From: Escherichia coli
GTDB taxonomy: Bacteria; Pseudomonadota; Gammaproteobacteria; Enterobacterales; Enterobacteriaceae
Length of the DNA: 64,000 nt
Strand: one strand, 5' to 3'
Assembly (NCBI RefSeq): GCF_003334355.1
Contig: NZ_QOWP01000016.1
Numbering within the stretch: the first letter of the stretch is position 1; each line of letters begins with the position of its first letter. This document shows positions 9,138-49,902 of this stretch, piece after piece. Below the pieces are notes generated by a model, which was not told the DNA's origin, did no database searches, and saw only the letters and a list, made by a program, of their open reading frames with translations. The translations under genes were made by a program, and so were the position numbers.

Positions 9138-9994
9138 ATATCGCAATTGTGACAATAAATCAGGAGAATGCCGCAATAGCAAGCTGGCTGGCGGCGCAGG
9201 ATTTCAGCGGTTGTACCCTGGCGCACTGGCAGATTGAACCTCAGCCTGTAGTGGCGGAACAGGTGCTGGATGCGTTGGTGGAACAGTGGCAGCGAACGCC
9301 TGCGGACGTTGTTCTCTTTCCGCCGGGAACGTTTGGCGATGAACTGTCGACCCGGCTGGCCTGGCGTTTACATGGTGCAAGCATCTGCCAGGTGACTTCG
9401 TTAGATATTCCAACCGTAAGCGTGCGCAAATCCCACTGGGGAAATGCGCTAACGGCGACGCTGCAAACAGAAAAACGCCCGCTATGCCTTTCCCTGGCGC
9501 GTCAGGCGGGAGCAGCGAAAAACGCCACGTTGCCCTCTGGAATGCAACAACTGAACATTGTCCCGGGTGCGCTTCCGGACTGGCTGGTTAGCACAGAGGA
9601 TCTGAAAAATGTTACTCGCGACCCATTAGCTGAGGCCAGACGGGTGCTGGTGGTGGGGCAGGGCGGAGAGGCAGATAACCAGGAAATCGCTATGCTGGCA
9701 GAAAAGCTGGGAGCCGAAGTGGGCTACAGTCGGGCGCGAGTGATGAACGGTGGCGTTGATGCTGAAAAAGTGATTGGTATTTCCGGACATCTGCTGGCAC
9801 CTGAGGTGTGTATTGTTGTTGGCGCTTCTGGCGCAGCAGCGTTAATGGCGGGCGTACGCAATAGCAAGTTTGTGGTGGCGATTAATCATGACGCCAGCGC
9901 TGCGGTATTTTCACAGGCAGATGTTGGCGTGGTTGATGACTGGAAAGTGGTGCTGGAGGCACTGGTGACAAACATTCACGCAGATTGCCAATAA
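9134..9994 (+). CDS. ygcQ: Electron-transfer flavoprotein alpha-subunit-like protein
   Basis: 286 aa; ATGA start/stop overlap with ygcR. Confidence 0.85.
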   Translation: MNIAIVTINQENAAIASWLAAQDFSGCTLAHWQIEPQPVVAEQVLDALVEQWQRTPADVVLFPPGTFGDELSTRLAWRLHGASICQVTSLDIPTVSVRKSHWGNALTATLQTEKRPLCLSLARQAGAAKNATLPSGMQQLNIVPGALPDWLVSTEDLKNVTRDPLAEARRVLVVGQGGEADNQEIAMLAEKLGAEVGYSRARVMNGGVDAEKVIGISGHLLAPEVCIVVGASGAAALMAGVRNSKFVVAINHDASAAVFSQADVGVVDDWKVVLEALVTNIHADCQ

Positions 9995-9999
9995 CGTGT

Positions 10000-10106
10000 T
10001 GCCGGATGATCCTGCCTACGGTTCTGGCCTGGGGACTTGTAGGCCTGATAAGACGCGTCAAACGTCGCATCAGGCGCTGAATGTCGGATGTGGCGTGCGG
10101 CCTACA
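10000..10106. repeat. REP-type extragenic palindromes between convergent ygcQ and ygcP
   Basis: GCCGGATG... and TGTAGGCCTGATAAGACGCG...CGCATCAGGCG motifs typical of E. coli REP elements. Confidence 0.55.
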
Positions 10107-10141
10107 AATCAAACCAAATTCAATTGGTTACGATTATCCCG

Positions 10142-10717
10142 TCAAAGTAATTTTTTCGCTAACGTCCAGACCCCGGTATTCGTGGTGGAAAGCGCCACGA
10201 CACCCGCGTTAATCGCATTACGCGCATCTTCTTCATCGCACACCAGCCCACCGGCAATCAGCGGTTGGCGGATTTTCTCTGTCACCCAGCCCAGCACTTT
10301 GGGCATACAGCCTGGCAGGATCTCAATACAATCCGGATTCGATTGCGCAACTTGCTTATCAATGTTGTGAAACGAAATTGAATCAACAATAAACAGGCGA
10401 TGAATACAGAAAAAACCTTCCGCTCTTGCCGCTTTCAACATTGAGGCTTTGGTACTGATAATGCCGTCCGCCTCGGTCACCAGTTTCAAAAACTGAATAA
10501 CGACTTCTTTATTTGACGCGCCTTCCAGCAAATCAACATGAATAAAAGCATATTTCCCGGCGTTCTTAATCTTTTTAACGATATTACTGATGGTGCAGAT
10601 ATTGCCGTACAACACGGAAATAAATTGGCATTCAGAATCGATTGCCAGTTGCAGGCTGGCATTATCTTTAACGGCAGCAATCACCGGATTCTGGCGGAGC
10701 AGGTGTAAGAGGGGCAT
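10142..10717 (-). CDS. ygcP: GlpP-family glycerol-3-phosphate-responsive antiterminator-like protein
   Basis: 191-aa ORF; family assignment recalled from annotation, not recomputed. Confidence 0.85.
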   Translation of the reverse strand: MPLLHLLRQNPVIAAVKDNASLQLAIDSECQFISVLYGNICTISNIVKKIKNAGKYAFIHVDLLEGASNKEVVIQFLKLVTEADGIISTKASMLKAARAEGFFCIHRLFIVDSISFHNIDKQVAQSNPDCIEILPGCMPKVLGWVTEKIRQPLIAGGLVCDEEDARNAINAGVVALSTTNTGVWTLAKKLL

Positions 10718-10733
10718 AAATTATCCTTATTAT

Positions 10734-10994
10734 TTATCCAAAGCGGTAGGTGATGCCGAATCCGGAAGGCGGATAGCGCCACTGTTGTAGTGTTGATTCG
10801 TCGCACAGCAAACGGCAGGTGCCACACTCCAGGCAACTGCGATAGTCAATACGTAAGTCACCTTCCGGTGTGAGCGAAAAAAGACCTGCCGGACAGGCGT
10901 TAATCAACCGTTCTGCCGTCTGGCGCTCAACGGAGTCAGCCGGAACAATGTGCGGCGCATCAGCAACGCGCCAGAGATTACGGGCTACAGACAT
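10734..10994 (-). CDS. ygcO: FixX-like 4Fe-4S ferredoxin-like protein
   Basis: Cysteine cluster CLECGTCRLLC in the translated ORF; 86-aa version from the internal Met; overlaps the ygcN stop. Confidence 0.8.
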   Translation of the reverse strand: MSVARNLWRVADAPHIVPADSVERQTAERLINACPAGLFSLTPEGDLRIDYRSCLECGTCRLLCDESTLQQWRYPPSGFGITYRFG

Positions 10995-12256
10995 CGCAGA
11001 CTCCTGATAACATCGCCCGCCAGATGCCACAGGCCGTGACGACGTAAATGATGCCAGAATAACTGGCGCAGCGGTGGAACAGGTTTATCACCCTGATCCC
11101 ATAAATCGCGGGAAATATCCTGCATTAACGCAGGCCACGTACGGTACCATCCCGGGCGTTGCAAAAGCGCCGGAACATGCTGATAACGCTGTAGAACATC
11201 CCACAGCAGGCTGCGCTCTACGTTGTGATGATAAAGCGGAAACAGATTTTGCGGCTCGCGGTGCTGGCAGGCGCTTATCAGCGTTTGTGCCGCCGCCTGC
11301 GCGCCAGTCAGCGCCATATCCATGCCGCGCACGGAAATTCCGGTATTGACGCAACTGCGCAACGCATCGCCCACCAGCAGCCAGCCGTTACCGGCGTATT
11401 GCACCGGCATACTGTGCAAGCCACCTTCTGGCACCAGATGCGCACCATACTCCAGTGATTCCGTGTTTTTGATAAGCGGGCGCACTGCCGGATGCGCTTT
11501 AAAGCGAGTCAGCAGCTCGCTTGCCGGAACACGGCTTTGCGTAAGGGAAGAGAGCGGGCAAACAATCCCTAACGAGAGCGTTTGTTGATTAGTATAAAGA
11601 AATGCGCCGCCGGGTAAGTCATCACAGATCCCGCCGCTGAACAGCAACGCTGCGCCTTCGTTATTCTCCAGATGAAAACGTTCTTCAATAGCGGATGTTT
11701 CCAGCGACAGCACTTCTTTGATCCCCAACGCCATCGCTTCGCCAGCAGGACGAGTCACTAACCCGTGACGCTCAGCCAGGACGCTGTTGGCACCTTCTGC
11801 CAGCACCACATAACGGGCGCGGAGAATATCGTCACCACAAATGACACCACACACCCTGCCGTTTTCTTCATACAGTGCATCCACCGTCGCACCAGGGATG
11901 CATTCGACACCTTCTTTTTCGGCTTCGGCAACCAGCCACGGATCGAACCGTGCACGTAATACACTCCAGGATTCACCGCCGGGCTGTAAGCTGGAAAACG
12001 TCGTTGCGCCATCCGGCGTTAACAGGGAAAGGCTTTCGTGAGTGATGCATCGTTCAAGAGGCGCGGTCAGATGAAACTGAGGGAGGAGTTCCGCGAGTGC
12101 ATGGGTATATAACCGCCCGCCGGAAAGATTTTTGCTGCCGGGGATTTCAGCGCGTTCCAGTAACAAAACGGATAAACCCGCTCGCGCGCAGCGTAACGCG
12201 CAAGCGGTGCCTGCAATACCGGCACCAATAATAATAATGTCGCAGTCGTCTTCCAT
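10985..12256 (-). CDS. ygcN: FAD-dependent oxidoreductase (FixC / ETF-quinone oxidoreductase-like)
   Basis: 423 aa from MEDDCDIIIIGAGIAGTACA, which contains the GxGxxG dinucleotide-binding motif. Confidence 0.88.
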   Translation of the reverse strand: MEDDCDIIIIGAGIAGTACALRCARAGLSVLLLERAEIPGSKNLSGGRLYTHALAELLPQFHLTAPLERCITHESLSLLTPDGATTFSSLQPGGESWSVLRARFDPWLVAEAEKEGVECIPGATVDALYEENGRVCGVICGDDILRARYVVLAEGANSVLAERHGLVTRPAGEAMALGIKEVLSLETSAIEERFHLENNEGAALLFSGGICDDLPGGAFLYTNQQTLSLGIVCPLSSLTQSRVPASELLTRFKAHPAVRPLIKNTESLEYGAHLVPEGGLHSMPVQYAGNGWLLVGDALRSCVNTGISVRGMDMALTGAQAAAQTLISACQHREPQNLFPLYHHNVERSLLWDVLQRYQHVPALLQRPGWYRTWPALMQDISRDLWDQGDKPVPPLRQLFWHHLRRHGLWHLAGDVIRSLRCL

Positions 12257-17391: not shown

Positions 17392-17693
17392 GCGAGCAGT
17401 ATTCCTGATTTTAAACGTGAACGCCGCTGGAAGAATTATCAGGTATAGAATGGCGTCGGGTGCTTGAGGCTGTCTGGCGTTAAGCATTCGCGAGGTTCCA
17501 GATGGACAAAAGCCCCAGGCGATATTTCTATCAACCTGAGGCCAGCGTTCGAACCCAAACAATTCGAATGTTAGTCTCTTCTTTGCAGGGAGGCAAGACA
17601 TGTGTATATCACTGTAATTCGATATTTATGAGCAGCATCGAAAAATAGCCCGCTGATATCATCGATAATACTAAAAAAACAGGGAGGCTATTA

Positions 17694-17825
17694 ATGGAAC
17701 CTTTTAAATATATATGCCATTACTGGGGAAAATCCTCAAAAAGCTTGACGAAAGGAAATGATATTCATCTGTTAATTTATCATTGCCTTGATGTTGCTGC
17801 TGTTGCAGATTGCTGGTGGGATTAA
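17694..17825 (+). pseudogene. cas3: cas3 5' segment: 43 codons (MEPFKYICHYWGKSSKSLTKGNDIHLLIYHCLDVAAVADCWWD) closed by an in-frame TAA
   Basis: ATG at 17694 with AGGGAGG 7 nt upstream; TAA at 17823-17825; the same frame continues into the 832-codon ORF. Confidence 0.7.
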
Positions 17826-17861
17826 TCAGTCGTACTGCAAAATACTTTTTGCCGAAATGAA

Positions 17862-20360
17862 ATGCTATCAAAACAGAGGGTGAAGGCCTGGCTGTTATTT
17901 TTCATTGCTCTTCATGATATTGGAAAGTTTGATATACGATTCCAATATAAATCAGCAGAAAGTTGGCTGAAATTAAATCCTGCAACGCCATCACTTAATG
18001 GTCCATCAACACAAATGTGCCGTAAATTTAATCATGGTGCAGCCGGTCTGTATTGGTTTAACCAGGATTCACTTTCAGAGCAATCTCTCGGGGATTTTTT
18101 CAGTTTTTTTGATGCCGCTCCTCATCCTTATGAGTCCTGGTTTCCATGGGTAGAGGCCGTTACAGGACATCATGGTTTTATATTACATTCCCAGGATCAA
18201 GATAAGTCGCGTTGGGAAATGCCAGCTTCTCTGGCATCTTATGCTGCGCAAGATAAACAGGCTCGTGAGGAGTGGATATCTGTACTGGAAGCATTATTTT
18301 TAACGCCAGCGGGGTTATCTATAAACGATATACCACCTGATTGTTCATCACTGTTAGCAGGTTTTTGCTCGCTTGCTGACTGGTTAGGCTCCTGGACTAC
18401 AACGAATACCTTTCTGTTTAATGAGGATGCGCCTTCCGACATAAATGCTCTGAGAACGTATTTCCAGGACCGACAGCAGGATGCGAGCCGGGTATTGGAG
18501 TTGAGTGGACTTGTATCAAATAAGCGATGTTATGAAGGTGTTCATGCACTACTGGACAATGGCTATCAACCCAGACAATTACAGGTGTTAGTTGATGCTC
18601 TTCCAGTAGCTCCCGGGCTGACGGTAATAGAGGCACCTACAGGCTCCGGTAAAACGGAAACAGCGCTGGCCTATGCTTGGAAACTTATTGATCAACAAAT
18701 TGCGGATAGTGTTATTTTTGCCCTCCCAACACAAGCTACCGCGAATGCTATGCTTACGAGAATGGAAGCGAGCGCGAGCCACTTATTTTCATCCCCAAAT
18801 CTTATTCTTGCTCATGGCAATTCACGGTTTAACCACCTCTTTCAATCAATAAAATCACGCGCGATTACTGAACAGGGGCAAGAAGAAGCGTGGGTTCAGT
18901 GTTGTCAGTGGTTGTCACAAAGCAATAAGAAAGTGTTTCTTGGGCAAATCGGCGTTTGCACGATTGATCAGGTGTTGATATCGGTATTGCCAGTTAAACA
19001 CCGCTTTATCCGTGGTTTGGGAATTGGTCGAAGTGTTTTAATTGTTGATGAAGTTCATGCTTACGACACCTATATGAACGGCTTGCTGGAGGCAGTGCTC
19101 AAGGCTCAGGCTGATGTGGGAGGGAGTGTTATTCTTCTTTCCGCAACCCTACCAATGAAACAAAAACAGAAACTTCTGGATACTTATGGTCTGCATACAG
19201 ATCCAGTGGAAAATAACTCCGCATATCCACTCATTAACTGGCGAGGTGTGAATGGTGCGCAACGTTTTGATCTGCTAGCTCATCCAGAACAACTCCCGCC
19301 CCGCTTTTCGATTCAGCCAGAACCTATTTATTTAGCTGACATGTTACCTGACCTTACGATGTTAGAGCGAATGATCGCAGCGGCAAACGCGGGTGCACAA
19401 GTCTGTCTTATTTGCAATTTGGTTGACGTTGCACAAGTATGCTACCAACGGCTAAAGGAGCTAAATAACACGCAAGTAGATATAGATTTGTTTCATGCAC
19501 GCTTTACGCTGAACGATCGTCGAGAAAAAGAGAATCGTGTTATTAGCGATTTCGGAAAAAATGGGGAGCGAAATGTTGGACGAATACTTGTCGCCACGCA
19601 AGTCGTGGAACAATCGCTCGACGTTGATTTTGATTGGTTAATTACCCAGCATTGTCCCGCAGATTTGCTTTTCCAACGATTGGGTCGTTTACATCGCCAT
19701 CATCGCAAATATCGTCCCGCTGGTTTTGAGATTCCTGTTGCCACCATTTTGCTGCCTGATGGCGAGGGTTACGGACGACATGAGCATATTTATAGCAACG
19801 TTAGAGTCATGTGGCGGACGCAGCAACATATTGAGGAACTTAATGGAGCATCCTTATTTTTCCCTGATGCCTACCGGCAATGGCTGGATAGCATTTACGA
19901 TGATGCTGAAATGGATGAGCCAGAATGGGTCATCAAAGGCATGGATAAGTTTGAAAGCGCTGAGTGTGAAAAGAGGTTCAAGGCTCGCAAGGTTCTGCAG
20001 TGGGCTGAAGAATATAGTTTGCAGGATAACGATGAAACCATTCTTGCGGTAACGAGGGATGGGGAAATGAGCCTGCCATTATTGCCTTATGTACAAACGT
20101 CTTCAGGTAAACAACTGCTCGATGGCCAGGTCTACGAGGACCTAAGTTATGAACAGCAGTATGAGGCGCTTGCACTTAATCGCGTCAATGTACCCTTCAC
20201 CTGGAAACGTAGTTTTTCTGAAGTAGTAGATGAAGATGGGTTACTTTGGCTGGAAGGGAAACAGAATCAGGATGGATGGTTCTGGCAGGGTAACAGTATT
20301 GTTATTACCTACACTCGGGATGAAGGGATGACCAGAGTCATCCCTGCAAATCCCAAATAA
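17862..20360 (+). CDS. cas3: Cas3 HD-nuclease/helicase, longest intact ORF (832 aa); lacks the first 56 codons of the recalled 888-aa protein
   Basis: HD motif (FFIALHDIGKF), Walker A (APTGSGKTE) and DEVH box (LIVDEVHAYD) are all present; no obvious SD upstream of ATG 17862. Confidence 0.85.
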   Translation: MLSKQRVKAWLLFFIALHDIGKFDIRFQYKSAESWLKLNPATPSLNGPSTQMCRKFNHGAAGLYWFNQDSLSEQSLGDFFSFFDAAPHPYESWFPWVEAVTGHHGFILHSQDQDKSRWEMPASLASYAAQDKQAREEWISVLEALFLTPAGLSINDIPPDCSSLLAGFCSLADWLGSWTTTNTFLFNEDAPSDINALRTYFQDRQQDASRVLELSGLVSNKRCYEGVHALLDNGYQPRQLQVLVDALPVAPGLTVIEAPTGSGKTETALAYAWKLIDQQIADSVIFALPTQATANAMLTRMEASASHLFSSPNLILAHGNSRFNHLFQSIKSRAITEQGQEEAWVQCCQWLSQSNKKVFLGQIGVCTIDQVLISVLPVKHRFIRGLGIGRSVLIVDEVHAYDTYMNGLLEAVLKAQADVGGSVILLSATLPMKQKQKLLDTYGLHTDPVENNSAYPLINWRGVNGAQRFDLLAHPEQLPPRFSIQPEPIYLADMLPDLTMLERMIAAANAGAQVCLICNLVDVAQVCYQRLKELNNTQVDIDLFHARFTLNDRREKENRVISDFGKNGERNVGRILVATQVVEQSLDVDFDWLITQHCPADLLFQRLGRLHRHHRKYRPAGFEIPVATILLPDGEGYGRHEHIYSNVRVMWRTQQHIEELNGASLFFPDAYRQWLDSIYDDAEMDEPEWVIKGMDKFESAECEKRFKARKVLQWAEEYSLQDNDETILAVTRDGEMSLPLLPYVQTSSGKQLLDGQVYEDLSYEQQYEALALNRVNVPFTWKRSFSEVVDEDGLLWLEGKQNQDGWFWQGNSIVITYTRDEGMTRVIPANPK

Positions 20361-20410
20361 CTTCGGGAATGATTGGTATCAATGACGATAACAAGACCAA
20401 TAACGGTTTA

Positions 20411-20428
20411 TCCCTACTTAAGTAGGGA
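20411..20428. other. 18-bp perfect palindrome TCCCTACTTAAGTAGGGA downstream of cas3
   Basis: Self-complementary around CTTAAG; no U-tract follows. Confidence 0.4.
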
Positions 20429-20429
20429 A

Positions 20430-20774
20430 GGTGCACAATGTACATCTTCTTTTAATTTCCCGGTATGAGATTTTATATTCGCAGTATGAATATTTTATGT
20501 AATAAAATTTATGGTAATTATTATAACTAAAAGTTTCTTTGATAATAAAACGAATAACTTGCAGATTTGAAATGCATGCATTATTGTCTTTAAACAATTC
20601 AACACATCTTAATATATGTATAGGTTAATTGTATTTAACCAATGAATATATTTTTGCAGTGAATGTGATTATTGAATTAATTACGCCGTATTTTTTCTTT
20701 GTTTTTACCGATAACGGAAGTGTGCCGACGTATAGAAATGCAGGAGAAATGTCGGAGCATATGAAGGAGAACAA
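20430..20774 (+). promoter_or_regulatory. AT-rich cas3-casA intergenic region carrying the casA operon promoter (Pcas; H-NS/LeuO control known in K-12)
   Basis: About 345 bp of visibly AT-rich non-coding DNA directly upstream of casA; promoter elements not pinpointed. Confidence 0.5.
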
Positions 20775-22283
20775 ATGAATTTGCTTATTGATAACTGGAT
20801 CCCTGTACGCCCGCGAAACGGGGGGAAAGTCCAAATCATAAATCTGCAATCGCTATACTGCAGTAGAGATCAGTGGCGATTAAGTTTGCCCCGTGACGAT
20901 ATGGAACTGGCCGCTTTAGCACTGCTGGTTTGCATTGGGCAAATTATCGACCCGGCAAAAGATGACGTTGAATTTCGACATCGCATAATGAATCCGCTCA
21001 CTGAAGATGAGTTTCAACAACTCATCGCGCCGTGGATAGATATGTTCTACCTTAATCACGCAGAACATCCCTTTATGCAGACCAAAGGTGTCAAAGCAAA
21101 TGATGTGACTCCAATGGAAAAACTGTTGGCAGGGGTAAGCGGCGCGACGAATTGTGCTTTTGTCAATCAACCGGGTCAGGGTGAAGCATTATGTGGTGGA
21201 TGCACTGCGATTGCGTTATTCAACCAGGCGAATCAGGCACCTGGTTTTGGTGGTGGCTTTAAAAGCGGTTTACGTGGAGGAACACCTATAACCACCTTCG
21301 TACGTGGGATCGATCTTCGCTCGACGGTGTTACTCAATGTCCTCACAATACCTCGTCTTCAAAAACAATTTCCCAATGAATCACATACGGAAAACCAACC
21401 TACCTGGGTTAAGCCTGTCAAACCCAATGAATCTGTGCCAGCTTCGTCAATTGGCTTTGTCCGCGGCTTATTCTGGCAACCTGCGCATATTGAATTATGC
21501 GATCCCATTGGGATTGGAAAATGTTCTTGCTGTGGACAGGAAAGCAATTTGCGTTATACCGGTTTTCTTAAGGAAAAATTTACCTTTACAGTTAATGGGC
21601 TATGGCCCCATCCGCATTCCCCTTGTCTGGTAACAGTCAAGAAAGGGGAGGTTGAGGAAAAATTTCTTGCTTTCACCACCTCCGCACCATCATGGACACA
21701 AATCAGCCGAGTTGTGGTAGATAAGATTATTCAAAATGAAAATGGAAATCGCGTGGCGGCGGTTGTGAATCAATTCAGAAATATTGCGCCGCAAAGTCCT
21801 CTTGAATTGATTATGGGGGGATATCGTAATAATCAAGCATCTATTCTTGAACGGCGTCATGATGTGTTGATGTTTAATCAGGGGTGGCAACAATACGGCA
21901 ATGTGATAAACGAAATAGTTACTGTTGGTTTGGGATATAAAACAGCCTTACGCAAGGCGTTATATACCTTTGCAGAAGGGTTTAAAAATAAAGACTTTAA
22001 AGGGGCTGGAGTCTCTGTTCATGAGACTGCAGAAAGGCATTTCTATCGACAGAGTGAATTATTAATTCCCGATGTACTGGCGAATGTTAATTTTTCCCAG
22101 GCTGATGAGGTCATAGCTGATTTACGAGACAAACTTCATCAATTGTGTGAAATGTTATTTAATCAATCTGTAGCGCCCTATGCACATCATCCTAAATTAA
22201 TAAGCACATTAGCGCTCGCCCGCGCCACGCTATACAAACATTTACGGGAGTTAAAACCGCAAGGAGGGCCATCAAATGGCTGA
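20775..22283 (+). CDS. casA: Cascade large subunit Cse1
   Basis: 502 aa, MNLLIDNWIPVRPRNGGKV... Confidence 0.95.
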   Translation: MNLLIDNWIPVRPRNGGKVQIINLQSLYCSRDQWRLSLPRDDMELAALALLVCIGQIIDPAKDDVEFRHRIMNPLTEDEFQQLIAPWIDMFYLNHAEHPFMQTKGVKANDVTPMEKLLAGVSGATNCAFVNQPGQGEALCGGCTAIALFNQANQAPGFGGGFKSGLRGGTPITTFVRGIDLRSTVLLNVLTIPRLQKQFPNESHTENQPTWVKPVKPNESVPASSIGFVRGLFWQPAHIELCDPIGIGKCSCCGQESNLRYTGFLKEKFTFTVNGLWPHPHSPCLVTVKKGEVEEKFLAFTTSAPSWTQISRVVVDKIIQNENGNRVAAVVNQFRNIAPQSPLELIMGGYRNNQASILERRHDVLMFNQGWQQYGNVINEIVTVGLGYKTALRKALYTFAEGFKNKDFKGAGVSVHETAERHFYRQSELLIPDVLANVNFSQADEVIADLRDKLHQLCEMLFNQSVAPYAHHPKLISTLALARATLYKHLRELKPQGGPSNG

Positions 22284-22758
22284 TGAAATTGATGCAATGG
22301 CTTTATATCGAGCCTGGCAACAACTGGATAACGGAGCATGTGCGCAAATTAGACGTGTTTCAGAACCTGATGAATTACGCGATATCCCTGCGTTTTATAG
22401 GCTGGTGCAACCTTTTGGTTGGGAAAACCCACGTCACCAGCAGGCTCTTTTACGCATGGTGTTTTGCCTGAGCGCAGGAAAGAATGTCATCCGACATCAG
22501 GACAAAAAACCGGAGCAAACAACAGGTATCTCGTTGGGAAGAGCTTTAGCCAATAGTGGAAGAATTAACGAGCGCCGTATCTTTCAATTAATTCGGGCTG
22601 ACAGAACAGCCGATATGGTCCAGTTACGTCGATTGCTTGCTCACGCCGAACCCGTACTTGACTGGCCATTAATGGCCAGGATGTTGACCTGGTGGGGAAA
22701 GCGCGAACGCCAGCAACTTCTGGAAGATTTTGTATTGACCACAAACAAAAATGCGTAA
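22276..22758 (+). CDS. casB: Cascade small subunit Cse2
   Basis: 160 aa; overlaps the casA end. Confidence 0.95.
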   Translation: MADEIDAMALYRAWQQLDNGACAQIRRVSEPDELRDIPAFYRLVQPFGWENPRHQQALLRMVFCLSAGKNVIRHQDKKPEQTTGISLGRALANSGRINERRIFQLIRADRTADMVQLRRLLAHAEPVLDWPLMARMLTWWGKRERQQLLEDFVLTTNKNA

Positions 22759-22770
22759 GGAAACCTTTCT

Positions 22771-23862
22771 ATGTCTAACTTTATCAATATTCATGTTCTG
22801 ATCTCTCACAGCCCTTCATGTCTGAACCGCGACGATATGAACATGCAGAAAGACGCTATTTTCGGCGGGAAAAGACGAGTAAGAATTTCAAGTCAAAGCC
22901 TTAAACGTGCGATGCGTAAAAGTGATTATTACGCACAAAATATTGGTGAATCCAGTCTCAGAACAATTCATCTTGCACAATTACGTGATGTTCTTCGGCA
23001 AAAACTTAGTGAACGTTTTGACCAAAAAATCATCGATAAGACATTAGCGCTGCTCTCCGGTAAATCAGTTGATGAAGCCGAAAAGATTTCTGCCGATGCG
23101 GTTACTCCCTGGGTTGTGGGGGAAATAGCCTGGTTCTGTGAGCAGGTTGCAAAAGCAGAGGCTGATAATCTGGATGATAAAAAGCTGCTCAAAGTTCTTA
23201 AGGAAGATATTGCCGCCATACGTGTGAATTTACAGCAGGGTGTTGATATTGCGCTTAGTGGAAGAATGGCAACCAGCGGCATGATGAGTGAGTTGGGAAA
23301 AGTTGATGGTGCAATGTCTATTGCGCACGCGATCACTACCCATCAGGTTGATTCTGATATTGACTGGTTCACCGCCGTAGATGATTTACAGGAACAAGGT
23401 TCTGCACATCTGGGAACACAGGAATTTTCATCGGGTGTTTTTTATCGTTATGCCAATATTAACCTCGCTCAACTTCAGGAAAATTTAGGCGGTGCCTCCA
23501 GGGAGCAGGCTCTGGAAATTGCAACCCATGTTGTTCATATGCTGGCAACAGAGGTCCCTGGAGCAAAACAGCGTACTTATGCCGCTTTTAACCCTGCGGA
23601 TATGGTAATGGTTAATTTCTCCGATATGCCACTTTCTATGGCAAATGCTTTTGAAAAAGCGGTGAAAGCGAACGATGGCTTTTTGCAACCGTCTTTACAG
23701 GCGTTTAATCAATATTGGGATCGCGTTGCCAATGGATATGGTCTGAACGGAGCCGCTGCGCAATTCAGCTTGTCTGATGTAGACCCTATTACTGGCCAGG
23801 TACAGCAAATGCCTACTTTAGAACAGTTAAAGTCCTGGGTTCGTAATAATGGCGAGGCGTGA
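22771..23862 (+). CDS. casC: Cascade backbone subunit Cas7
   Basis: 363 aa. Confidence 0.95.
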
Positions 23863-23864
23863 AC

Positions 23865-24539
23865 ATGAGATCTTATTTGATCTTGCGACTTGCTGGGCCA
23901 ATGCAAGCCTGGGGGCAGCCGACCTTTGAAGGAACGCGACCTACCGGAAGATTTCCGACCCGAAGCGGGTTATTAGGGCTACTCGGGGCTTGTCTTGGGA
24001 TCCAACGTGATGATACTTCTTCATTACAGGCGTTATCAGAGAGTGTGCAATTTGCAGTGCGCTGCGATGAACTCATTCTTGACGATCGTCGTGTGTCTGT
24101 AACGGGGTTGCGTGATTACCATACAGTCCTTGGAGCGCGAGAAGATTACCGTGGTTTGAAAAGTCATGAAACGATTCAAACATGGCGCGAATATTTATGT
24201 GATGCCTCCTTTACCGTCGCTCTCTGGTTAACACCACAGGCAACGATGGTTATGTCAGAACTTGAAAAAGCAGTATTAAAGCCTCGGTATACACCGTATC
24301 TGGGGCGGAGGAGTTGTCCGCTAACACAACCGCTTTTTCTCGGGACATGTCAGGCATCGGATCCTCAGAAGGTGCTATTAAATTATGAGCCCGTTGGCGG
24401 CGATATTTATAGTGAGGAATCAGTTGACGGGCATCATTTAAAATTTACGGTGCGCGACGAACCGATGATCACCTTGCCTCGACAATTTGCTTCCCGAGAA
24501 TGGTATGTGATTAAAGGAGGTATGGATGTATCTCAGTAA
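23865..24539 (+). CDS. casD: Cascade subunit Cas5
   Basis: 224 aa from ATG 23865 (MRSYLILRLAGPMQAWG). Confidence 0.93.
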   Translation: MRSYLILRLAGPMQAWGQPTFEGTRPTGRFPTRSGLLGLLGACLGIQRDDTSSLQALSESVQFAVRCDELILDDRRVSVTGLRDYHTVLGAREDYRGLKSHETIQTWREYLCDASFTVALWLTPQATMVMSELEKAVLKPRYTPYLGRRSCPLTQPLFLGTCQASDPQKVLLNYEPVGGDIYSEESVDGHHLKFTVRDEPMITLPRQFASREWYVIKGGMDVSQ

Positions 24540-25125
24540 AGTCATCATTGCCAGGGCCTGGAGCAGGGATCTTTACCAACTTCACCAGGGATTATGGCAT
24601 TTATTTCCAAACAGACCGGATGCTGCTCGTGATTTTCTTTTTCATGTTGAGAAGCGAAACACACCAGAAGGCTGTCATGTTTTATTGCAGTCAGCGCAAA
24701 TGCCTGTTTCAACTGCCGTTGCGACAGTCATTAAAACTAAACAGGTTGAATTTCAACTTCAGGTTGGTGTTCCACTCTATTTTCGGCTTCGGGCAAATCC
24801 GATAAAAACTATTCTCGACAATCAAAAACGCCTGGACAGTAAAGGGAATATAAAACGCTGTCGGGTTCCGTTAATAAAAGAAGCAGAACAAATCGCGTGG
24901 TTGCAGCGTAAATTGGGCAATGCCGCGCGCGTTGAAGATGTGCATCCCATATCGGAACGACCACAGTATTTTTCTGGTGATGGTAAAAGTGGAAAGATCC
25001 AAACGGTTTGCTTTGAAGGGGTGATCACCATCAACGACGCGCCAGCGTTAATAGATCTTGTACAGCAAGGTATTGGGCCAGCCAAATCGATGGGATGTGG
25101 CTTGCTATCCCTGGCTCCACTGTGA
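24526..25125 (+). CDS. casE: Cas6e pre-crRNA endoribonuclease
   Basis: 199 aa; 14-bp overlap with casD. Confidence 0.95.
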   Translation: MYLSKVIIARAWSRDLYQLHQGLWHLFPNRPDAARDFLFHVEKRNTPEGCHVLLQSAQMPVSTAVATVIKTKQVEFQLQVGVPLYFRLRANPIKTILDNQKRLDSKGNIKRCRVPLIKEAEQIAWLQRKLGNAARVEDVHPISERPQYFSGDGKSGKIQTVCFEGVITINDAPALIDLVQQGIGPAKSMGCGLLSLAPL

Positions 25126-25140
25126 TTAAGGTGTAATAAA

Positions 25141-26344
<1,204 letters not shown>

Positions 26345-26449
26345 AAACAAAGAATTAGCTGATCTTTAATAATAAGGAAATGTTACATTAAGGTTGGTGG
26401 GTTGTTTTTATGGGAAAAAATGCTTTAAGAACAAATGTATACTTTTAGA
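26345..26449 (+). promoter_or_regulatory. CRISPR leader (crRNA promoter and spacer-integration region)
   Basis: AT-rich 105 bp between the cas2 stop and the first repeat, ending ...ACTTTTAGA. Confidence 0.8.
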
Positions 26450-26600
26450 GAGTTCCCCGCGTCAGCGGGGATAAACCGCCAAAGCAAAAGAAGTCGTCGA
26501 TAATATGCGTGAGTTCCCCGCGTCAGCGGGGATAAACCGGGCGCACTGGATGCGATGATGGATATCACTTAGAATTCCCCGCCCCTGCGGTAGAACACCC
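26450..26600 (+). CRISPR. Cas-adjacent CRISPR array (CRISPR2.1-like): 2 intact repeats plus a degenerate terminal repeat, 2 spacers
   Basis: GAGTTCCCCGCGTCAGCGGGGATAAACCG at 26450 and 26511 (T at repeat position 13, where the distal array has C); degenerate GAATTCCCCGCCCCTGCGGTAGAACACCC at 26572. Confidence 0.93.
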
Positions 26601-26620
26601 AGCTCCCATTTTCAAACCCA

Positions 26621-27658
26621 TCAAGACGCCTTCGCCAACTCCTTCACCAGAGGTAGCATTATCCGCATAACGTCACGGCAGCGACGTTCTATTCTTCCAG
26701 GAAGTGCCTTATCAATATGCTGTTGATTATCCAGTCTTACGTCATGCCAGCTATTTCCCGCAGGGAATGCGGCTGTTTTTGCGCGTTGCTGATAACCATC
26801 CTTATTCCCAAGATTCCAGTTAGTCGCTTCCACCGAAAGTACAGCAATGCCCGCTTTGTCGAATATTTCTGCGTCATTACAACACCCAGTGCCTTTCGGA
26901 TAATTTTTATTCAAACCCGGATTGGTCGTTGCGGCTATTCCGTGACTGCGTGCAATTGCCAGCGCCCTGTCGCGCGTTAATTTCCTTACTGCTTCAGGGG
27001 TTTTTACACCGCTGTTGAAATACAATTTATCGCCAACAATTAAGTTATCGAGATTAATCACCAGCAGCGTATTTTTCTTTTCGGTGTCACTCATCCGCTT
27101 GAGTAAATTCTCAGCGCCTAATTTCCCTTCCTCTTCGCCGCTGGTCGCCACAAATCGAATACCATACTCGGTAGGCGTATTTTTCAGGCGTTCTGCCAAT
27201 TCCAGCATGACACCTAAACCTGCGGCGTTATCATCCATTCCTTGTAACGTCAGCCCGCCGAGATTGGCATCGGCGTCAGCATCGCTCAGCGGGGCGTAAG
27301 TATCCAGATGCGCCATAATGATGATCTGCTGCGGCGCTTTGCCTTCATGAGCGGCAATCACCGTACTTCCCGTCACGTTATGCCAGCTCTTACGATTATC
27401 GCGGGCGGTATAAATATACCGACTATTAAATGTCCGAATATCACTGCGATAACCCATTTGCTGAAACTGTTGGCGAATATAATCGGCAGATAACATTTCT
27501 GCAGGAGTTCCGGTCATGCGTCCCGGAAAGAAAGTAGCAATATGTCGTGCCTGAGTATTAGCAAAATCGCCAGGTTTAGGTGACGAGGCGTGTACGGGGA
27601 GAATAAAGCATACGCCGAGCGCCAGGGCAGCGGTACGGTGGCGCAATGCGGAAAACAT
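26621..27658 (-). CDS. iap: Alkaline phosphatase isozyme conversion aminopeptidase
   Basis: 345-aa ORF. Confidence 0.9.
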   Translation of the reverse strand: MFSALRHRTAALALGVCFILPVHASSPKPGDFANTQARHIATFFPGRMTGTPAEMLSADYIRQQFQQMGYRSDIRTFNSRYIYTARDNRKSWHNVTGSTVIAAHEGKAPQQIIIMAHLDTYAPLSDADADANLGGLTLQGMDDNAAGLGVMLELAERLKNTPTEYGIRFVATSGEEEGKLGAENLLKRMSDTEKKNTLLVINLDNLIVGDKLYFNSGVKTPEAVRKLTRDRALAIARSHGIAATTNPGLNKNYPKGTGCCNDAEIFDKAGIAVLSVEATNWNLGNKDGYQQRAKTAAFPAGNSWHDVRLDNQQHIDKALPGRIERRCRDVMRIMLPLVKELAKAS

Positions 27659-47823: not shown

Positions 47824-49902
47824 TTAAATCAATGCCGATTTATCAATTCCCAGCCGCTTCATCCGTGACAGCAGGGTCGTGCGTTTCAGCCCCAGACGTT
47901 GCGCAGCGCCTTTAGGCCCGGCAACCACGCCGTTGGTTTCTTTCAGCACGCGCACAATCAACTGATATTCATCTTCGCCCTCCTGGGCGACAACCGTTGC
48001 GGCAGGCGGCGTTTCAGGTTCCGGTAAAACAATATCTGGCAATGACAGCTGCAGCACGTTACCGCGTGTTAGCAATACCGCGCGCTCAATGACGTTTTCC
48101 AGTTCGCGTACGTTACCCGGCCACTCCATGTTGCTCAAGGTGCGCAGCGTCTCGGCAGGAATGCTGTCGATATTGCGCCCCAGACGACGGGCAATTTTGA
48201 AGGTAAAGGCTTTCGCCAGCAGCGGAATATCTTCCGGACGCTCGCGTAGTGGCGGCAGGTGAATCGGGAATACGTTCAGGCGGTAATAGAGATCGCTACG
48301 GAACTCACGGTCGGCGACCATTTTTTTCAGATCGCGGTTAGTCGCGGCGATTAGACGCACGTCCGTCTGAATGATTTTGTTGCTGCCGAGACGTTCAAAC
48401 TCCTGTTCCTGCAATACACGCAGCAACTTCGGCTGTAACTCCAGTGGCATATCGCCCACTTCGTCGAGGAACAGGGAGCTTTTATCCGCCAGTTCAAAAC
48501 GACCGATACGCTGGGCGCTGGCACCGGTAAAAGCCCCACGCTCATGACCAAACAGATCGCTTTCCAGCAATCCGGCAGGCATCGCCGCGCAGTTCATTTT
48601 GACCATGCGGCGATTATTACGCCCACTGAGATTATGGATCGCACGGGCAATCAGCTCTTTACCCGTGCCAGTTTCACCGAGGATCAGCACGGTACTGTCA
48701 CTTTGCGCCACCATTTCAACTTGTTTAAGCACGCTGTACATGGCTTCGCTGCGGCCAATAATCTCGCCAAATTCACTATCAACATTGTTGAGCTGCTCGG
48801 TCAGGGCGAGGTTTTCATCAACCAGCCGTTCTTTCAGACGATGGATTTCCTGATAGGCGAGGGCGTTATCGACAGCGATTGCCACACGTTCGGCAATCTG
48901 GCGCAGTAAATTCAGATTGGTAGTGGTAAACACTTTCTCTTCGCATTGCGCCAGTTTCAGCACGCCCAGCATGGTGTCGCCAGACATCAGCGGTAACAGG
49001 CACAAGGTTTGAATCTGGTTGCCCCAGGTGTCGAACAACATGCGTTCATAGGGGGCTAAATCGTCCCGCTCGTGGAGATTGATCAGCAGCATCTCTTTAC
49101 TTTTGAACACGCGTTCGGTGAGGGTTCCGGCTTCATCGACTTCGCTCTGTTCGTGGGCGGGATGCTGTTTATCAAGATAGTGAGTGGAGTAGATGTTGAG
49201 TTTGTTTTTACGGTGGCTGCGTAAGACGATACTGATATCGTCAATGTCGAAATAGTAATGGATTTCTTTGGCGACTTCGCTGACCAGTTCGTCCATATCC
49301 AGGCGGGAAAGCACCGCGTTGGTGATGGCGACCAGGATGCGGAAGTTATCGCGTTCCCGGCATAACAACTCATAGTCGACATTGTTAACGACGCGGCTCT
49401 GGATTTGTTCGGTGACGACAGAAACGATCTGCGTAAATGTTTGCAGACGATTGAACTCTTTTTCGCTCCAGGGGCGATCGTCATAACGAATAAATTCACA
49501 GCCACCAAAAATATGCCCTTCCGCCGCCAGTGGCATCAGGCAATAGTGACCAAATTTTGGGTATAGCCCACCTGCGGCCAGCTGCGGCCAGGTTTCACAA
49601 AATTCTTCGTAACTGCAATGCAGCGTATCAGGGCGCGACAAAATGCTGCGTACCGGACCGTGTGCCAGAACAGTTTCGTCTTCATATTTAATGGGGGTGT
49701 CTTTTTCACGCGACGCGTAATAAGACGCACGTTGAGTCTGCGCTTGCCACAACACAATAGCCGCGTTGTCGGCGAGCGCAGAACGCTTTACCAGTTGCGA
49801 AAGAGCCTCACACAGCGAGGCCAGATCGGGCTGCTGCAATAGTGTCCGAGTGATGTCGAACAACCCTTGTTGTCCGAGATCACTCATCGGTGTATATGAC
49901 AT
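47824..49902 (-). CDS. fhlA: Formate hydrogenlyase transcriptional activator (sigma-54 enhancer-binding protein)
   Basis: 692 aa from MSYTPMSDLGQQ; AAA+ motif GETGTGKE; C-terminal HTH. Confidence 0.93.
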   Translation of the reverse strand: MSYTPMSDLGQQGLFDITRTLLQQPDLASLCEALSQLVKRSALADNAAIVLWQAQTQRASYYASREKDTPIKYEDETVLAHGPVRSILSRPDTLHCSYEEFCETWPQLAAGGLYPKFGHYCLMPLAAEGHIFGGCEFIRYDDRPWSEKEFNRLQTFTQIVSVVTEQIQSRVVNNVDYELLCRERDNFRILVAITNAVLSRLDMDELVSEVAKEIHYYFDIDDISIVLRSHRKNKLNIYSTHYLDKQHPAHEQSEVDEAGTLTERVFKSKEMLLINLHERDDLAPYERMLFDTWGNQIQTLCLLPLMSGDTMLGVLKLAQCEEKVFTTTNLNLLRQIAERVAIAVDNALAYQEIHRLKERLVDENLALTEQLNNVDSEFGEIIGRSEAMYSVLKQVEMVAQSDSTVLILGETGTGKELIARAIHNLSGRNNRRMVKMNCAAMPAGLLESDLFGHERGAFTGASAQRIGRFELADKSSLFLDEVGDMPLELQPKLLRVLQEQEFERLGSNKIIQTDVRLIAATNRDLKKMVADREFRSDLYYRLNVFPIHLPPLRERPEDIPLLAKAFTFKIARRLGRNIDSIPAETLRTLSNMEWPGNVRELENVIERAVLLTRGNVLQLSLPDIVLPEPETPPAATVVAQEGEDEYQLIVRVLKETNGVVAGPKGAAQRLGLKRTTLLSRMKRLGIDKSALI

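Follow-up and report, generated by a model that had tools for sequence, protein, structure and literature searches.

The type I-E CRISPR-Cas locus in the window, the whole stretch of 64,000 nucleotides of Escherichia coli DNA analyzed here, raises the question of whether its cas3 gene, which is interrupted by an in-frame TAA at codon 44, still gives rise to a functional Cas3 and, if it does not, how this function was lost. The results described below indicate that cas3 is, with high probability, a recent nonsense pseudogene that originated from one C-to-T transition, by which the Gln44 codon CAA was converted to the ochre codon TAA, and that this change probably represents neutral decay of a silenced system.

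Identification of a nonsense substitution in cas3

Translation from the ATG at 17694–17696, located six bases 3' of the AGGGAGG motif, begins with MEPFKYICHYWGK, and the 43 residues encoded before the TAA at 17823–17825 are MEPFKYICHYWGKSSKSLTKGNDIHLLIYHCLDVAAVADCWWD. Beyond this codon, the cas3 frame is open until the stop at 20358–20360. An uninterrupted frame of approximately 888 codons from the start with the linked Shine-Dalgarno (SD) sequence is thus not present, as the frame is broken by the TAA. The downstream ORF of 832 aa retains the motifs ALHDIGK (with H74/D75), APTGSGKT (Walker A), and DEVH as well as the C-terminal domain. The positions that the original prediction had assigned to the SD sequence, the start codon, the TAA, and the 832-codon ORF with its HD, Walker A, and DEVH motifs were all correct (Table 1).

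Table 1. Features of the type I-E locus and of the associated CRISPR arrays in the window
Feature	Position	Strand	Evidence
SD sequence of cas3, AGGGAGG	17681..17687	+	read from sequence; 16S pairing energy
cas3, very probable pseudogene, 888 codon positions, in-frame TAA as codon 44	17694..20360	+	translation and comparison with 1919D3
Remnant N-terminal ORF, 43 aa and TAA	17694..17825	+	translation
Mutated base T, C in intact alleles (CAA Gln44 to TAA)	17823	+	alignment
Downstream ORF from Met57, 832 aa, without SD sequence	17862..20360	+	translation, pairing energy
casA, casB, cas7e, cas5e, cas6e, cas1e, and cas2e, all full length	20775..26344	+	translation, comparison with 1919D3
cas-adjacent CRISPR array, two good repeats, one degenerate terminal repeat, two spacers	26450..26600	+	
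Second (distal) I-E CRISPR array, 14 repeats, 13 spacers, leader cut by the window start	79..900	+	

The alignment of cas3 with the intact annotated allele of 1919D3 (WP_000433156.1, 888 aa) revealed identity at 2,666 of 2,667 positions, the sole difference being at 17823, with T in the window versus C in 1919D3. The gene is therefore the ortholog of an intact gene that carries a single stop-creating substitution, and the lack of any other change 3' of the stop argues for a recent event. In the section from 17400 to 20500 (3,101 nt), one mismatch to 1919D3 was found, and six complete genomes match this section with a single mismatch. The same gene is found at the same site, between cysH and casA, in E. 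coli K-12, where it encodes the type I-E HD nuclease/SF2 helicase Cas3 (YgcB) of 888 aa. The K-12 and window genes differ at 34 nt; both comprise 888 codon positions and encode the HD, Walker A, and DEVH motifs and the C-terminal domain, whereas codon 44 is CAA in K-12 and TAA in the window, which interrupts the frame. An alignment with cas3 from other E. coli had been proposed as a check in the original prediction. It gave CAA at codon 44 in both 1919D3 and K-12, and thereby bore out the single C-to-T nonsense change suggested there, with 1 of 2,667 nt altered. The properties given there for K-12 Cas3 (888 aa, Gln44 encoded by CAA) also matched the MG1655 gene, which consists of 2,667 nt and 888 codons.

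Frequency of disrupted type I-E loci in E. coli

The background against which this lesion has to be judged was determined from complete genomes in which the I-E locus is of the K-12 type. The annotation was read for 21 such loci, 13 of which carry a spacer against pflB and eight of which were chosen arbitrarily. In 17 of these loci, an IS insertion, a deletion, or an internal stop was present in cas3 or casA–E; in one further locus, IS1 trimmed the end of cas6e, one had intact ORFs with an IS150 just upstream of cas3, and only two were intact. Most of the surveyed loci thus have a broken interference gene, which fits the long-standing view that the I-E system is silenced and decaying in E. coli. 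Touchon and Rocha reported in 2010 that 17 of 40 systems were partial and described cas3 pseudogenes beside apparently intact I-E genes (PMC2886076), and similar cas3 frameshifts are known from O26:H11 strains (PMC5592225). The rarity of the lesion had been overrated in the original prediction, since a broken cas3 or Cascade is the usual state of the E. coli locus according to both our survey and the earlier one (PMC2886076). The codon-44 stop is one more case of the documented I-E decay. As lesions of this type are so common among E. coli loci, neutral decay of a silenced system is the interpretation that suits the mutation best.

Two further observations were made in the 21 loci. The cas1 and cas2 genes were lost in only one of them, and an IS3 insertion in cas5e was found at one site common to nine genomes.

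Other assemblies contain the same 832-aa ORF as a result of at least six further independent lesions within codons 1–56. These lesions include a T5-to-T4 frameshift (GCA_016678035.1, ERR2538252, and ERR1623114), a TA repeat shortened by 2 nt (SRR13131695), the gain of two A in an A run (GCA_900195715.1), an IS1 insertion (GCA_034541835.1), and a 1-nt deletion (SRR31216457). The downstream protein from Met57 is identical in these assemblies; unlike in the window, it results from frameshifts in short repeats or from IS1, and not from a stop at Gln44. An identical 832-aa protein is deposited in NCBI nr under the name 'Cas3' (EEZ3946997.1 and others), and many N-terminal Cas3 fragments of 40–63 aa are also on record.

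Whereas most of the other surveyed lesions are IS insertions or deletions, cas3 of the window is undamaged apart from one clean nonsense substitution, which argues for a very recent event. The most similar described cases are the cas3 pseudogenes of Escherichia, Shigella, and Salmonella (PMC2886076), in which cas3 is likewise dead while the other cas genes and the arrays are kept; a further likeness is the short cas-adjacent array with two spacers.

Self-targeting spacer against pflB

An alternative to neutral decay is that cas3 was lost under selection, as an escape from autoimmunity caused by a spacer of the strain itself. The spacer at 230–261 is identical over 32 of 32 positions to the chromosomal core gene pflB and antisense to it, and the target is nearly invariant in the species, the 32-mer being conserved in 5,410 of 5,426 complete genomes. 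The spacer was found in 13 distinct complete E. coli genomes; 12 of them have a lesion in cas3 or casA–E that goes back to at least four independent events, and the first five were all broken. However, the protospacer in pflB is preceded by CCG, the trinucleotide with which the repeat also ends, and a CCG PAM was reported to give no interference and to have a priming score close to zero in the E. coli I-E system (PMC6568314). The spacer is thus self-targeting, but its PAM is competent for neither interference nor priming. In addition, six of the eight arbitrarily chosen loci without the pflB spacer were also broken, a proportion that did not differ from that of the spacer-bearing loci (6/8 versus 12/13; Fisher's exact p = 0.53), and GmM062 has an intact locus in spite of bearing the spacer. 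On the basis of the inert PAM and of the breakage rate in the control loci, autoimmunity was rejected as the cause of the cas3 loss, and we consider this explanation very unlikely. Naive adaptation, which takes up self DNA and uses non-AAG PAMs (PMC10011333), accounts for the pflB spacer as an inert by-product.

Coding capacity downstream of the stop codon

A working Cas3 might nevertheless be made in two ways: translation could restart at Met57, or the 43-aa and 832-aa fragments could reassemble. Reinitiation at a low level 37 nt 3' of a stop is possible in bacteria, and the ATG at 17862 lies only at this distance from the TAA, in front of an undamaged ORF that retains H74/D75, all helicase motifs, and the C-terminal domain. 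The strength of the possible SD sequences was estimated from the pairing energy of the upstream 18 nt with the 3' end of the 16S rRNA. The value was −11.1 kcal/mol at 17694 but +0.1 kcal/mol at 17862, which is weaker than the mean of −2.2 kcal/mol obtained for random positions; the view that ATG 17862 lacks an obvious SD sequence was thus confirmed. This ATG is the first possible start 3' of the TAA, as neither ATG, GTG, nor TTG occurs between the codon-44 stop and 17862 in the cas3 frame.

A product starting at Met57 would, moreover, lack part of the nuclease domain. Pfam analysis of the intact 1919D3 protein, from which the window differs only at codon 44, assigned residues 11–235 to Cas3_HD and identified the DEAD/ResIII, Helicase_C, and Cas3-like_C_2 domains. 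With residues 1–56, about a fifth of the Cas3_HD domain is missing, including His30 (in LIYHCLDVAAV), which corresponds to His37 of Thermobifida fusca Cas3 when the sequence is aligned with Cas3 proteins of known structure. His37 is an Fe(II) ligand that helps to hold the pair of Fe(II) ions in place in the HD site, and the equivalent His24 of the Thermus thermophilus enzyme also binds metal (PMC5965380). E. coli Cas3 loses all cleavage activity upon just one substitution in the HD motif, H74A (PMC9427990). The codon-44 stop lies between His30 on one side and H74/D75 with the motifs that follow on the other, and an HD nuclease domain with all metal-ligand motifs is hence not encoded on one polypeptide. 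The SF2 helicase core with Walker A and DEVH is present together with the C-terminal domain.

The organization in two ORFs resembles that of type I subtypes in which cas3 is split into Cas3'' (HD) and Cas3' (helicase). In contrast to these, the break in the window occurs within the HD domain itself (residue 44), with 13 residues between the ORFs; a split between domains with separate start signals was not found, there being no SD sequence before Met57. Reassembly of the fragments is further disfavored by residues 44–56, which are missing from both of them. Because of the missing His30 and the lost early part of the HD domain, the Met57 product should not cut DNA. Taken together, restart or reassembly to a working enzyme appears highly improbable, and a functional Cas3 nuclease is, as far as can be deduced from the sequence, unlikely to be formed.

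We see only a very slim chance that the locus has adopted another role, in which either a helicase-proficient, nuclease-dead Cas3 is made from Met57 or no Cas3 is made at all, and in which the intact Cascade binds DNA without destroying it, as a natural CRISPRi-like system, or the truncated helicase has a role outside immunity.

Predicted consequences for interference and adaptation

In a nonsense pseudogene of this kind, ribosomes from the strong native start would terminate after 43 residues. The remaining 2.5 kb would either not be translated or yield traces of a product from Met57, and this product, without the first part of the HD nuclease domain and its metal-binding His30, would not cleave DNA; we infer that Cas3 protein is absent. 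Cascade (CasA–E), CasE-mediated crRNA processing, and Cas1–Cas2 would remain encoded. In K-12, cas3 and the casA–cas2 operon are transcribed from the separate promoters Pcas3 and Pcas8e, both of which are silenced by H-NS (PMC10011333); accordingly, the codon-44 stop should not by itself block the expression of Cascade or Cas1–Cas2. If the H-NS-silenced operon were expressed, crRNAs could be made, targets could be bound, and spacers could be added naively, while target destruction and priming would be lost. Primed adaptation requires both Cascade and Cas3, whereas Cas1–Cas2 capture and integrate spacers in both modes, with host nucleases supplying the spacer precursors for naive adaptation (reviewed in PMC10011333). 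In view of this established I-E genetics, and of a Met57 restart without SD sequence and without His30, it is likely that interference and priming are lost and that crRNA processing and naive adaptation are kept, which would become apparent only where the locus is expressed.

The finding carries little weight beyond strain bookkeeping. Where interference, priming, or Cas3-based editing is required, a working native I-E system cannot be taken for granted in this lineage.

Reproducibility and distribution of the T allele

Queries with an 81-mer and a 30-mer did not retrieve the T allele at 17823 from any complete E. coli genome in RefSeq (5,426 genomes). The 81-mer around 17823 matched 1,066 of these genomes, with 80 of 81 positions as the best value, and the 30-mer centered on the T gave zero matches; as a control for short queries, a 32-mer did return matches in the same genome collection. 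A single base that is shared by none of 5,426 genomes could be a sequencing or assembly error, with CAA as the true codon. This was contradicted by an exact-protein look-up, in which the same TAA at codon 44 was identified in three public datasets. Logan ERR4578542 is 100% identical to the window from 7694 to 30360 (~22.5 kb), Logan SRR3823860 is 100% identical from 17573 to 26750 (9.2 kb), and GenBank GCA_002190165.1 matches the window over 12.8 kb with two mismatches, both at the end of its contig. In the two Logan datasets, the 43-aa remnant is annotated as a Cas3_HD fragment. The base call is therefore reproducible in independent data, and site 17823 is located outside any homopolymer, which leaves a marginal probability for an error. 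The three datasets could represent one strain sequenced repeatedly, and they give little information on the spread of the allele in nature; even in this case, a base-calling error is ruled out. The T allele belongs to a small clonal lineage. The closest complete RefSeq genome is that of PSS-12, with 99.7% identity over the first 25 kb of the window, and none of the complete RefSeq genomes matches the window throughout.

Full-length Cas3 formed by readthrough or suppression of the stop, for example, by an ochre suppressor tRNA, has a practically negligible probability, as nothing in the 64-kb window speaks for it, the TAA is followed by T, which is a strong terminator context in E. coli, and no UAA recoding mechanism is known for this organism.

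The look-up retrieved the 43-aa remnant from 14 contigs and the 832-aa product from at least 24 contigs. Eight short public contigs have their ends exactly at position 17823 (...GGGATC). The possibility that recombination or an IS had caused a break there was considered and rejected, since all eight contigs have the wild-type C or stop just before it and since the point at which homology between the cas variants of E. coli really breaks off is approximately 17602. The eight contig ends are a selection artefact, as a 43-aa product was used as the query against a very large collection. At approximately 17602, ~4,250 complete E. coli genomes lose homology to the window, and this break marks the boundary of alternative cas variants; it lies in the region around ~17450–17602, just upstream of cas3, in a stretch for which a Hok/Gef family gene is annotated elsewhere.

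Neighboring genes and CRISPR arrays

The cas3 gene adjoins casABCDE, cas1, cas2, and an I-E CRISPR array. The claim that these genes are full length held upon translation, which gave products of 502 (CasA), 160 (CasB), 363 (Cas7e), 224 (Cas5e), 199 (Cas6e), 305 (Cas1), and 94 aa (Cas2), and casA to cas1 showed 100% nucleotide identity with the intact annotated alleles of 1919D3. In the corresponding regions of 1919D3, 64 CDS are annotated; 58 of them were located in the window, and each was translated from its start; cas3 was the only disrupted gene among these 58 reference CDS.

The block from cas3 to cas1 (17400–26058) differs from 1919D3 by one base, whereas the flanking cysI, cysH, iap, and cysD are only 96.6–99.1% identical to their counterparts. 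This difference suggests that the cas module may have been exchanged between backgrounds by recombination. The codon-44 stop would have arisen after such a transfer.

The spacers at 291–322 and 596–627 are near matches to temperate phages. For one of the two, 29 of 30 positions agree with eaA of Salmonella phages such as SETP13; for the other, 30 of 32 agree with hypothetical genes of phiV10 and HK629. A gene labeled flhA (formate hydrogenlyase activator) is annotated as frameshifted at 9117–11194 of the 1919D3 region examined; its copy in the window, which starts at 49902 on the minus strand, is uninterrupted and encodes 692 aa.
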